From a bacterium (GTDB lineage: Bacteria > SZUA-182 > SZUA-191 > JAJRXT01): 64,000 nucleotides of DNA. The translations under genes were made by a program, and so were the position numbers. The DNA is taken from NCBI GenBank assembly GCA_024277675.1, contig JAJRUS010000007.1:4254-68253 (forward strand). The letters run 5' to 3'. The notes beneath the pieces are model-generated. The model saw only the letters and a program-made list of their open reading frames with translations, was not told where the DNA came from and ran no database searches. The stretch's first letter is position 1. Each line of letters begins with the position of its first letter. Below, piece after piece: positions 5,284 through 16,126 of the stretch.

Positions 5284-8200
5284 ATGAAAAGAACTATTGT
5301 GTCGACTATATTGATTTTATTATCAGGCTCTTTGGTGGTTACCTCTGTGGCGGGTGCGGTTTGTGAGATGAAAACCGATTATACCCCAGGCGTAGCATGC
5401 GCCTCGAGTACGGTGGTGGTGAATAATGACGCCGAGTTAGACGCTTATCTGGCAGACTTTGGCTTTAATGGGAACAAATACCAGAACCTGAAGCTTAACT
5501 ACGATGTGACCAGAGCAAATATTGATATCCACTCCCCCTGCAAGATTACCTTGAAGGACAATGTCATCTTGAGTGGGGATAGCATCTGTCTGGATGGCCG
5601 AAATGGGGTGGTTGACGATAACGGTTACACCGCCAATGCTGCCCAGTTGAGCGTATTATCTGAGTTGGGAGATGCTCATTTCGGCCGGGGATCGGTTATT
5701 AACGCTAATGAGTTGACCCTCAGCGCCTGGAAGAAGGCCAAAATCGGCATTAACTCCCAGGTTAATGTGACTGGGGCGGTTAAGCTGGTTTCCAGCGGTG
5801 ATCTCGCCAGTAGCGATGCTATTATCCGACAAGGCTCCACCGTAAATGCCGATAGCTTACTGGTACAGGCTCCCAGGGGCGCCACGCTTGGGCTAAGTAC
5901 CGATATTAATGTTAGCGGTAAGGTATCGGTCATTTCCACTGGCAGTTATACCGGCAGTCTGGCCAAAATTAAACAGGGGGCTGCTGTCAGCGCTAATAAT
6001 CTGGATCTGATTTCGGACAATAAAGCTGCGCTTGGGTTAAGTACAGTAATAGCCGCTGCCGACAATTTTACCATGCAGGCCGCCTCCCCGGATAAATGTT
6101 CCATTGCCGGTTCAGCCAGCATAAATGCGGGCAGCACCTGGGGGAATTGTTTACAACCCCTGGTGGTGGATATAACCTCACCGGCCGCCGGCTCACTTAC
6201 TAACAGCCCGACCATTAGCGTATCGGGCACAGTAACCGACCTCAATGCCTCAGTAACCGTAAACGATATTCCGGCTACAGTAGCCAATACCGGCTTTAGC
6301 GTCGACAATGTTCCTTTAAGCGAAGGGCCGAATACCATCACCGCCACGGCTACTGATCCGGCGGGCAATACCAGCGCCCATTCCATCAACATTACCCTGG
6401 ATACGATAATTCCCGACATCGGCATAAGCTCGCCGGCCAATGGTTCCACCATAGATAGCAACCTTCCGCTTGTCATCATGGACTACAGCGATGCAGGTGC
6501 GGGAATAGATAGCGGCAGCTTTCAAGCCAGCATAAACGGAGTGGATTATACCGCCTCATTTACAGTTACCGCCACTCAGGCTAGCTATCAACTAATCGCC
6601 CCCCTGCCCGAGGGAGCTAATACAGTTACCGCCGGCATATCAGATCTGGCGGGTAATTCAGCCTCAACCACTTCCAGCTTCACCGTGTCTATTGCTCCTC
6701 AGGCAACCGAATCTTCCGGTTTTATTCATGGTCAAGTATTTGATGTTCAAACAAAGTTGCCCATTGAAGGAGCCGTGGTTACTGTAGCGGGCATAGGGGG
6801 TAATATTTTATCTGATTTAGAAGGCAAATTCGTATTTCCTACACCAGGCACAGGCATCTATAAACTTAAAATAACCAAAGATGGATACAATTATAACCAG
6901 CGACTGGCCGAGGTGGTTTCCACCCGTGACACAACAGTAGCCCCGGCATATCTGCTGGCCATCGACACTACCGATATGGTAATCGCCTCCCAGGGAGCCT
7001 CACTTACCAACAGCACCGGCGATTTGCAAGTGGATATTCCACCTGACAGCTTACCCTATGATGCTGAGGTACACTTAACATTAATCACAGAACCGGAGCA
7101 ATTACCCAGTCCATTGCCTGACGGTTATGCCTTTATCAACTTTTTCTATGGCGAGCCTTCCGTTCAATTCGATCCACCGGCCACAGTACGTTTTTATAAC
7201 CGGTTGGGCTTTGAACCGGGGGCTACATTAACCATTGTGTTCTGGAATCGCCAGGAATTAGTGTGGGAAGAACGGGGGATGGCCTGGGTTACTGAGGATG
7301 GACAATGGATTCAGGGTGACTGGCCAAGTTTCAGTTCCGGGGGGATAACAATCCGCCCGATATACCCGGAAGTACCCTGCCCTGATCCCAATGACCCGGA
7401 TTGCCCCCCATGCGATCCGAACGATCCGAATTGTGGAGAAGAATGTGTTCCCGGTGACCCAGATTGTCCTGATTCCTGTCTGAATCCGGGGTTCGCCGGC
7501 AGTGGTTTTGTGTCGACTAATTATGCCCTCCCCAGTATAAATGCATTAGGAGCTTCAAGTGGGCTGCGATTAACTTATAACAGCAATGCAGCTTACCCCA
7601 CGGTGAGCATTCCCGCTATTGTCTATCCCAGAGGCACCTTTGCCATAACTCCTGATTCAATAAACATAGCTATAGAAGCGGGAGGGGAAAGTATAGAGAA
7701 AAAATTTGCATACAACAATCAGGTATCCCGCCAGACTTATTTACACACTCCCAGGGTAGCGGTTGATGGACAAACCAAATGGTTTGCCAGCGGCACATAC
7801 CCATATAATGTTAAGATTTCCAACGATTATAAACGAAACGAATACGCTGTTATTATATATAGCATATTCAATGGCGTACCTTTTGAGCCTGTAAGAACCG
7901 CAACTTATGTCATTGAGGATAAACCGGTCTCCTATTCAAGGGAGGTTTCAGGCAGATATGCAGTGGTTAATCACATAGCGAGCCCCTTCGGTTCCGGGTG
8001 GACAATACAGGGATTATCCAGGTTACACTTTGACCCAAATGACCCTGGTGGAAATATCAGTACGGTAATGCTTGATGAAGGCAGTGGAAATTTCAGGGTT
8101 TATACGCTGGTTGAGAATACTCCGATCACCAGTGAAGCAGTATATACTTCTCAAGCTGGCGATTTTTCCACTTTAATGCGCCATTCAGATGGTAGTTATA

Positions 8201-15289: not shown

Positions 15290-16126
15290 ATGGGCTACGG
15301 CATTGTAATTGTTATCGGGATATACTTGCTAGGTTTTCAACCTGTTGAGCGATTTTTGCTTTTTGTAAGTTTATGCTTAATGGGTAAAGTTATATTTAAT
15401 ACCTTTAGGGATTATAAAAGGGTTAAAAGGGTTCATAAACCAGCCTTCAAGCAAGCTATGAAAAGGTTTTTTTTATTCAGTTTTGGCACGAGCGCTGTTC
15501 CGCTGGTATTTGTTGTGGCTTATCTGGTATCCTTTGTTTTGCAAAAAGACCCCCATCAACCACTTATAGGTTATATGAGTAGCATAGCCGCTATATTTTT
15601 CTTGTTTTTTCATCGACATTTCATTGTTCCGCGCACCCCCCCCCGTGTCATTTCAGATGAAGGGCTGGAAGGGATGAAGAAATATGCACATAGGCTCATT
15701 CCAAGCAAAATTCAAGTCAGAGAAACTCAGGATGGCAGGTATCTTATAATAAGACCCCAAAAAAAAGAGCTGCCTCTCACCAGCAAAGTATTATTTACTC
15801 TTATTCTTATTATGATGACAATAGATGTATTCATATGGTTCTTCTCTATGCAAATTGGTTGGTTGGTTTTGGTAAACTTTTTTCTTGCCGGATATATAAT
15901 GGGGAAAATATTACCCCCGCATAAAGAGGATAAAAAGAGACCGTTTGTTTTGCCACTTATTATTAAAGCCTTTCTGGTCACCTTGCCATTTACGCTTGGT
16001 TTGGGCATAACAATTTTTAAACGGGGAACCTCTTTGTCTGCCAGTGGCCTTATTGCCTTTTGTGTACAGCTTGTTATGTTGCTCATATCCCAAATTGTGG
16101 AACCCTATCAACGACCTAATTTATAA
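15290..16126 (+). CDS. Polytopic membrane protein, candidate cognate immunity protein of the Rhs C-terminal domain
   Basis: It starts 26 nt after the Rhs stop. Six to seven hydrophobic segments are present. It is AT-rich relative to its neighbours and has no known domain. The call rests on position only. Confidence 0.4.
   Translation: MGYGIVIVIGIYLLGFQPVERFLLFVSLCLMGKVIFNTFRDYKRVKRVHKPAFKQAMKRFFLFSFGTSAVPLVFVVAYLVSFVLQKDPHQPLIGYMSSIAAIFFLFFHRHFIVPRTPPRVISDEGLEGMKKYAHRLIPSKIQVRETQDGRYLIIRPQKKELPLTSKVLFTLILIMMTIDVFIWFFSMQIGWLVLVNFFLAGYIMGKILPPHKEDKKRPFVLPLIIKAFLVTLPFTLGLGITIFKRGTSLSASGLIAFCVQLVMLLISQIVEPYQRPNL

Follow-up and report, generated by a model that had tools for sequence, protein, structure and literature searches.

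The window analysed in the current study is a 64,000-nt stretch of contig JAJRUS010000007.1 (assembly GCA_024277675.1), and near its left end lies a giant gene of the Rhs/YD-repeat type (nt 5284-15264), followed by genes for a polytopic membrane protein and an XRE regulator. The questions raised by this locus are whether it specifies a toxin together with its immunity protein, how a shell could be formed when its YD repeats are interrupted by other sequence, and whether the copy at hand can still supply a toxin. The locus is probably a toxin-immunity-regulator cassette of the Rhs/YD-repeat polymorphic-toxin kind, carried by a diderm anaerobe, with a single split cocoon and a membrane-inserting tip, the gene being broken in this copy by a TGA codon. 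Its notable features are a YD region interrupted by an adhesin-type beta-helix array, an orphan tip paired with an immunity candidate, and a co-conserved regulator. In this copy the toxin is possibly inactive.

According to the list of open reading frames (ORFs) and their translation, a single frame is open over nt 5284-15264 except for one internal stop, which gives two ORF calls in one shared frame, nt 5284-11814 (2176 aa) and nt 11908-15264 (1118 aa). A preliminary description, made from the letters alone, had spoken of one reading frame of about 3,300 codons; this does not hold, as codon 2177 is TGA (nt 11812-11814). The domain order it gave is largely real (Sec signal, YD block 1, three Gly-rich modules, YD block 2, Rhs core, tip, membrane protein, XRE regulator), and no additional Rhs or module copies were found elsewhere in the 64-kb window.

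Domain layout and the divided YD region

ORF1 holds the signal peptide, an N-terminal uncharacterised beta-rich region and Ig-like and transthyretin (TTR)-like domains; then come a Cys/Pro/Asp linker, YD block 1, the whole of module 1 and the greater part of module 2. The parts of the Rhs gene up to the end of its core are as follows.

nt 5284-11814 (+): ORF1 of the Rhs gene, 2176 codons, ending at the in-frame TGA
nt 5284-5361 (+): predicted Sec-type signal peptide, MKRTIVSTILILLSGSLVVTSVAGA followed by VC, with an AxA-like site; hydropathy, and motif read from the sequence
nt 6169-6405 (+): bacterial Ig-like domain (Glucodextran_B / Big_13), aa 296-374; Pfam E 1.2e-14 and 2.5e-08
nt 6724-6927 (+): CarboxypepD_reg (transthyretin-like) domain, sub-threshold, aa 481-548; 29.2 bits vs a cut-off of 32.3
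nt 7363-7482 (+): Cys/Pro/Asp-rich linker, 7 Cys between aa 699 and 732
nt 7486-9669 (+): YD block 1, including the shell start (LRLTYNS and GSGWT motifs), aa 735-1462; Pfam, NCBIfam and PDB sequence matches
nt 9691-10884 (+): Gly-rich beta-helix module 1
nt 10885-12078 (+): Gly-rich beta-helix module 2, bearing the premature stop; module comparison
nt 11812-11814 (+): in-frame TGA, next base C; codon 2177, inside module 2, at the conserved-Gly position of GALGLIGLE
nt 12079-13272 (+): Gly-rich beta-helix module 3; module comparison
nt 13273-13713 (+): linker of ~147 aa between module 3 and YD block 2, poorly conserved, with few conserved columns besides an LLAQAE motif
nt 13714-14595 (+): YD block 2 (C-terminal shell part); Pfam, NCBIfam and PDB sequence matches
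nt 14596-14820 (+): Rhs-associated core with the autoproteolysis motif PINYIDPMGL; TIGR03696

The assignment to an Rhs/YD polymorphic-toxin locus with a Sec-type signal is supported by RHS_repeat, TIGR03696 and hydropathy. The Pfam model RHS_repeat (PF05593) is matched by 15 stretches before the TGA and 4 after it (E 5e-92 and 5e-25), and the YD repeats are also matched by TIGR01643. TIGR03696 (Rhs_assc_core) from NCBIfam is matched with E 1.9e-23 and 82.7 bits vs a cut-off of 32.5, and the match ends exactly at nt 14820; both models, which had been proposed for checking the domain limits, therefore gave a match, and the core end is confirmed. The autoprotease motif PxxxxDPxGL is intact (PINYIDPMGL), is preceded 21 residues before by EDPLM, and is kept in the related loci L051 and L052.

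The top PDB sequence matches of both YD blocks are solved Rhs shells. Block 1 (aa ~735-1462) aligns with their N-terminal and middle parts, and block 2 (aa ~2807-3179) with their C-terminal part plus the core; in the solved shell 8qja, the matched stretches are residues 1041-1305 followed by 1474-1879. With ~730 aa in block 1 and ~370 aa plus the core in block 2 (~445 aa when the core is counted in), only the combined blocks reach the ~1000 aa of a solved shell. When the blocks were joined, single alignments crossed the junction unbroken (8qja 479-772, 7pq5 451-775, 8qjb 516-806), which is weak evidence because YD repeats are periodic. An AlphaFold2 model of joined YD1 and YD2, made from the single sequence without an alignment, gave a predicted local distance difference test score (pLDDT) of 32, an inconclusive result and not a negative one.

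The same layout recurs beyond the window. The junction from YD block 1 to the modules is also present in L001, which is collinear with nt 6477-11196 of the window, and the order module, linker, YD block 2 is also found in L002, L051 and L052. The last three have 53-68% identity to the window where they align with it, so that at least four related lineages have modules between YD segments, and YD-to-module junctions also occur in distant partial proteins (P0056 of Pyrinomonadaceae, P0085, P0101). A scan of metagenome contigs with YD block 2, core and tip gave one distant YD fragment only (L053). The placement of the modules inside the YD region, as originally proposed, is thus upheld by YD blocks on either side that align to successive shell parts and by a layout common to at least four lineages. 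A cocoon split by beta-helix modules is the reading that these sequence comparisons favour. No description of such an arrangement of Rhs and beta-helix was found in the searchable literature, which is absence of evidence only. If the YD blocks do close one cocoon, the Rhs shell would tolerate an insertion of ~1,350 aa, consisting of an adhesin-like rod and a flexible return linker, and such tolerance would bear on cocoon folding, on targeting and on the engineering of these shells as protein-delivery capsules.

The three Gly-rich modules are indeed tandem copies, each of 398 aa, with a period of 1185-1194 nt, 69-83% DNA identity and 62-63% protein identity to module 1. Their beta-helix-like nature, suspected at the outset, agrees with the predicted fold, an adhesin-like right-handed beta-helix with a pLDDT of 96.7. 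The window modules had no match in Pfam or NCBIfam, and a profile built from the three copies matched 303 proteins at E <= 0.001; among the named matches are proteins of Verrucomicrobia, Planctomycetota, Candidatus Binatia, Aminicenantes and Chloroflexi, and Pfam domains are nearly absent from the matches. An Rhs gene lies on the same strand within 10 kb in 6 of the 48 genome loci with modules, and in L012 (Victivallales, one ORF of 3940 aa) and L032 (Kiritimatiellia, >3924 aa) modules stand N-terminal to the YD region in the same ORF. As judged from these sequence matches, the beta-helix module is a widespread domain family, recurrent in or beside Rhs genes and not unique to this gene; with 303 matches in many phyla and no Pfam or NCBIfam model, it deserves one.

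A separate observation concerns three loci from metagenome-assembled genomes of Deltaproteobacteria and Verrucomicrobiota, where a very large module-bearing ORF lies directly 3' of the Rhs core and tip (L003 nt 7679-13420, L018 nt 6563-14902, L041 nt 4331-11779). There the module ORF occupies the position expected for an immunity gene.

At the N-terminus, the hydropathy of the signal peptide is 2.52 over aa 3-27 and its hydrophobic stretch ends in AGA. Cys27 follows directly after the signal-peptide site, and the lipobox rule is not satisfied by the sequence. Two Ig-like domains had been claimed, of which one (aa 296-374) passes the Pfam threshold while the second is a weak HYR match only; the CarboxypepD_reg-like domain is matched at aa 481-548, but at 29.2 bits it falls under the 32.3-bit cut-off. 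The region aa 550-905 had no Pfam or NCBIfam match, and a scan of genome contigs with the N-terminal 700 aa gave no relative.

The in-frame stop in module 2

As sequenced, the Rhs gene is cut by a premature TGA, and a full-length toxin could be made only via stop-codon readthrough. Module 2 reads TCA TGA where modules 1 and 3 read TTG GGG and CTG GGG, so that four base changes separate it from module 1 within six nt, and the GALGLIGLE motif is intact in all other module copies examined, including those of L002 and L051. Beyond the TGA, 1,149 codons are fully open with no second lesion. Pairwise ratios of nonsynonymous to synonymous substitution (dN/dS) are 0.09-0.26 among the modules; in comparisons with L051 and L052, the shell tail, the tip, the membrane protein and the XRE regulator give 0.14-0.33. 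In view of these low ratios and of the lack of a second lesion, the Rhs gene has long been a coding one, and the TGA is a very young lesion if it is not an error in the sequence. Most likely, this copy was recently inactivated or the base calls in the repeat are wrong, and the premature stop is a practical caveat for any use of this copy.

A genuine recent pseudogene is a tenable explanation, though one held only tentatively. Here a nonsense lesion in module 2 would have killed the toxin gene, and the immunity and regulator genes would have been kept as protection from toxin-producing relatives. The substitution falls on a Gly conserved in all the other module copies examined and involves the cluster of base changes described above. 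TGA also normally terminates ORFs in this genome, being the ordinary stop of 10 other ORFs in the window. Neither a SECIS (selenocysteine insertion sequence) nor any other RNA element was found at the TGA by Rfam and fold scans, and no credible restart site is present: the first in-frame start past the TGA is ATG 11908, whose sole Shine-Dalgarno-like sequence is badly spaced and whose product would have no signal peptide. The remaining open codons and the dN/dS values of 0.09-0.33 across all parts nevertheless require that inactivation, if any, was very recent, and a base-calling error may lie behind the TGA.

An assembly or sequencing artefact within the tandem repeats, the real gene being an intact frame of 3,326 codons, is somewhat less likely than a pseudogene. 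Besides the TGA, the related metagenome contigs L001 and L002 (JGI sample 3300038380) have a deletion of ~32 nt inside a module (about nt 3560) and a 2-nt insertion inside a module (about nt 1900), respectively. All three frame disruptions seen in the gene family therefore lie in the beta-helix modules, although modules account for only about one third of the sequence compared. The clustering is a hint, though no proof, of faulty assembly in the repeats, which are the places where assemblies go wrong. Set against this, the modules are only 69-83% identical in DNA, divergent enough for unambiguous read placement, and the lesion is a cluster of substitutions and not a homopolymer indel.

Leaky readthrough at the TGA might also allow the lesion to be tolerated, as a TGA before C is the weakest termination context in E. 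coli. That the gene is functional despite its stop, either through a little full-length toxin made by UGA-C readthrough or through two chains forming one cocoon in the manner of TcB and TcC (Tc toxins, with 4o9x and 6h6e among the PDB matches, build a YD cocoon from two polypeptides), is distinctly unlikely, since homology runs in frame across the TGA and speaks against an ancestral gene boundary, the downstream part lacks a signal peptide and a good ribosome-binding site, and no readthrough-promoting structure is present.

Three further explanations of the TGA were rejected. Genome-wide recoding (codes 4 or 25) is excluded by the 10 other window ORFs that end in TGA. Selenocysteine or programmed recoding is unsupported, as no Rfam family matched within nt 4000-17500 and no stable RNA structure was seen 3' of the TGA (fold z-score 0.35 vs shuffled sequence). 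The TGA is not an ancestral gene boundary either, as homology to the paralogous modules passes through it in frame.

The tip, the candidate immunity protein and the regulator

Directly 3' of the Rhs core stands a single AT-rich unit of tip, membrane protein and XRE regulator, which is kept in three loci under purifying selection.

nt 14821-15264 (+; coding 14821-15261): C-terminal tip of 147 aa, orphan family, with three moderately hydrophobic segments and five conserved Cys; G+C 0.385
nt 15290-16126 (+): polytopic membrane protein of 278 aa, candidate immunity protein; G+C 0.382
nt 16157-16186 (+): promoter-like site TTGCAA-18-TATAAT before the XRE gene
nt 16253-16624 (+): XRE/HTH_3 regulator (Pfam), kept in each of the three loci along with tip and membrane protein; G+C 0.382

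The G+C content falls from 0.47-0.51 in the Rhs body to the values listed, and the boundary is located at the core-tip junction, a classic signature of an Rhs tip cassette. The identities of tip, membrane protein and XRE regulator to the window are 58.5, 73.7 and 78.0% in L051 and 56.5, 54.0 and 56.2% in L052, and the cassette dN/dS vs these two loci is 0.17-0.33. The homologous tips have five conserved Cys and a GGIAETG motif in common. For the 278-aa protein only three database relatives were found, namely itself (P0121), P0122 (74% identity) and P0123 (53%), and on the contigs of P0122 and P0123 the order is again Rhs tail, membrane protein and XRE; the gaps measure 12-25 nt, and the genes farther on are unrelated. 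In all three loci the pair follows an Rhs core, and an association with non-Rhs genes instead was not seen. Swapping of the cassette, a comparison suggested in the preliminary description, was not seen: the three tip-bearing loci are orthologous, each has this tip together with this membrane protein and this regulator, and no alternative tip was seen among them. Orphan copies of the tip or of the immunity gene were not found elsewhere in the window.

The early account of a 278-aa polytopic protein of no known family followed by an XRE regulator is correct; hydropathy gives ~6-7 hydrophobic segments, with a loop of polar character over aa 110-160, Pfam and NCBIfam gave no family match, and HTH_3 is matched at nt 16253-16624. 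The 278-aa protein is a candidate immunity factor by its position next to the tip and by co-conservation in three loci. The tip had been called hydrophobic and without recognisable family. It is an orphan as described, but its hydrophobicity is only modest, with 19-residue Kyte-Doolittle maxima of 1.3-1.5. A word-index search found no tip homologues, and phmmer against 1.84 billion representatives gave one match, P0124, which was rejected as a low-complexity repeat protein. A PDB sequence search at E <= 10 gave no match for the tip, none for the 278-aa protein, and no detectable similarity of the tip to Tse5-CT. Two TTGCAA hexamers 13 nt apart (nt 16140-16190) overlap the promoter-like site of the XRE gene and may be an autoregulatory operator.

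Rhs proteins in which a hydrophobic tip is paired with a membrane-embedded immunity protein have precedents in Tse5/Tsi5 and in BiTLP (PMC9637101; PMC10684867; PMC13018210). Tse5/Tsi5 of Pseudomonas aeruginosa are an Rhs pore-forming toxin of a type VI secretion system (T6SS) and its integral-membrane immunity protein (PMC9637101; PMC10684867). Tse5-CT inserts itself in membranes and makes pores that are cation-selective, and it depolarises cells; two transmembrane regions are predicted for Tsi5, whose place in the cytoplasmic membrane as an integral protein is supported (PMC9637101). The likeness to the present locus lies in an Rhs C-terminal fragment without predicted enzymatic activity (that of Tse5 is predicted to hold transmembrane and amphipathic helices), in a nearby gene for an integral membrane protein, which here adjoins the tip, and in the Tse5 shell (8cp6_B), which matches both YD blocks. 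There are differences as well. The N-terminus of Tse5 is PAAR-like and its delivery is through the T6SS via VgrG4, whereas a Sec signal is found here, PAAR is lacking and T6SS genes are missing from the 64 kb; Tsi5 is predicted to have two transmembrane regions, against ~6-7 hydrophobic segments in the protein here; and Tse5 aligns as one uninterrupted shell without a beta-helix insertion, the tips having no detectable similarity.

In bacterial teneurin-like proteins (TLPs), a Sec signal and BIG and TTR domains are combined with a YD shell and with C-terminal domains of ~15 kDa, and their genes occur in six phyla that include Thermodesulfobacteriota (PMC13018210). The C-terminal domain of BiTLP is hydrophobic, is toxic only if sent to the periplasm, and permeabilises cells to propidium, its immunity gene lying directly downstream (PMC13018210). 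The Rhs protein of the window resembles TLPs (BiTLP; PDB 9ifo, 9pt5) in its Sec signal, its N-terminal Ig-like and possibly TTR-like domains, its YD shell with a DPxG autocleavage motif, its C-terminal domain of ~15 kDa and the candidate immunity gene downstream. TLPs are, however, defined by an FN-plug, an NHL beta-propeller and the YD shell, and no NHL or FN-plug match is present here: NHL was not matched in Pfam at E <= 0.01, and between aa 290-970 and BiTLP outside its YD parts there is no match. The propeller of TLPs precedes the YD region, while the extra domain here is a triple beta-helix inside it. By the proposed reading the Rhs protein would work like the Tse5 and TLP systems, yet it is a member of neither subgroup.

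Other comparisons are less close. WapA of Bacillus subtilis and Streptococcus suis has the Sec signal, YD repeats and Rhs core in common with this locus, and its polymorphic tip and downstream immunity gene have putative counterparts here, but it belongs to monoderms, and the WapA-like layout proposed earlier does not fit a diderm host; in addition, no cell-wall-binding domains were detected here and the shell is split by beta-helix modules. The TcB-TcC cocoons of Tc toxins (TcdB2-TccC3; PDB 4o9x, 6h6e) are YD cocoons built from two separate segments, in which an aspartyl autoprotease of the Rhs core frees the encapsulated tip. The TcB part has an embedded non-YD beta-propeller, whereas the embedded element here is an adhesin-type beta-helix, and the break is a nonsense codon in a repeat and not a gene boundary. 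There is no TcA partner and no SpvB-like N-terminus, and only the Rhs-core region matches TcdB2-TccC3. The giant Rhs proteins of the Planctomycetes-Verrucomicrobia-Chlamydiae group (L012, L032) combine the same module family with a YD shell and Rhs core in one ORF; unlike in the window, where the modules divide the YD region in two, theirs precede it with no YD upstream.

That the tip is not membrane-active at all, being a disulfide-rich domain acting in the periplasm or an enzyme-like domain, with the 278-aa protein an accessory unrelated to immunity, is rather unlikely. The hydropathy maxima of 1.3-1.5 lie under typical transmembrane values, the five conserved Cys suggest a folded, disulfide-bonded domain, and homology to Tse5-CT or to any PDB chain was not found. 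Against this stand the tight adjacency of the membrane protein to the tip (gaps of 12-25 nt), their co-conservation in three loci, and the fact that similar known Rhs and TLP tips are membrane-active, with membrane or adjacent immunity genes (PMC9637101, PMC13018210). The tip and membrane-protein pair would extend the few known membrane-active Rhs cargos by a new toxin-immunity family.

A bolder proposal is that the locus represents an undescribed Rhs class, with an adhesin-type triple beta-helix stalk in the cocoon wall, a shell made from two non-contiguous YD segments (maybe two chains, with a leaky or regulatory UGA-C), T6SS-independent export by Sec in anaerobic diderms, and a toxin of a new family that contains Cys, inserts in membranes and is neutralised by a new polytopic immunity protein. 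Taken as a whole this is unlikely.

Proposed action, export and neighbouring genes

Under the preferred reading of a split cocoon with a membrane-inserting tip, the two YD blocks would together build one cocoon around the tip, and the beta-helix rod would stand out from its wall, serving as a stalk or for binding. Once delivered, the autocleaved, hydrophobic, Cys-containing tip would insert in the cytoplasmic membrane of the target and dissipate its barrier or potential. Within the membrane of the producer the tip would be neutralised by the 278-aa protein, and the XRE protein would control the cassette.

To the periodicity of the YD repeats and the inconclusive structure model, other points that weigh against this reading must be added. 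The in-frame TGA means that the full-length protein is not encoded as such, and the start at ATG 11908, without a well-spaced Shine-Dalgarno sequence, would give a product with no signal peptide. The tip maxima of 1.3-1.5 are borderline for transmembrane helices. Neither on the protein nor within 64 kb was a signature seen of an outer-membrane export route, T6SS, PAAR, VgrG, two-partner secretion or the type IX secretion system; among the scanned window ORFs there were no T6SS families, and the Pfam scan gave no PAAR match. The Sec signal would bring the Rhs protein only to the periplasm. Finally, a strong terminator precedes the start codon by 38 nt, and no promoter is visible in between.

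nt 5199-5246 (+): strong hairpin and T8 terminator-like element, with a stem of 20 pairs, 8 of them GC; ends 38 nt before the Rhs start codon

No sigma-70-like promoter was seen between this element and nt 5284. A near-consensus promoter, TTGACA-16-TATGAT, is present at nt 4887-4914, and judging by this arrangement Rhs expression may rely on terminator readthrough from it. Between the promoter and the terminator lies an ORF of 71 aa (nt 4956-5171) with no family match, and this region could be a small regulatory gene or a leader/attenuator of the giant gene.

That the host is a diderm anaerobe is indicated by the gene content of the window, which encodes an arnT/D/A/C/B-like cluster, LpoB, DUF1425, a YfiO/BamD-like tetratricopeptide-repeat protein, a NiFe hydrogenase and many Fe-S proteins. 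The arnT/arnD/arnA/arnC/arnB-like cluster (nt 52158-58841, minus strand) consists of PMT, polysaccharide deacetylase, formyltransferase-epimerase, family 2 glycosyltransferase (GT2) and DegT aminotransferase genes, and points to lipid A modification and a diderm envelope. The NiFe-hydrogenase-like cluster (nt 30980-36394, +) comprises Fer4_22, an FAD/NAD-binding subunit, a small subunit and a large subunit, and is interrupted by a DUF5677 gene (nt 32881-33726). Its large-subunit ORF has only 383 aa, and its best stretch matches only the N-terminal part of the NiFeSe_Hases profile.

Several other genes of the window deserve brief mention. An IstB-like gene for an IS21 helper ATPase at the left window edge (nt 98-892, +) places a mobile element less than 5 kb from the Rhs gene. 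A lone gene for an EutN/CcmL microcompartment vertex protein (nt 4416-4715, +; PF03319, E 1.7e-26), near which no other microcompartment genes were seen, follows guaA and precedes the Rhs locus. A protein of 570 aa (nt 23796-25508, +) has an unusual set of domains, AAA_22, Peptidase_C39 and PG_binding_1, and resembles ExeA/GspA with an added C39 peptidase domain. At nt 42211-43698 (+), Pentapeptide_3 repeats are fused to an Ion_trans_2 channel domain in an ORF that has a TTG start and overlaps the end of the upstream asparagine synthase gene by ~90 nt.

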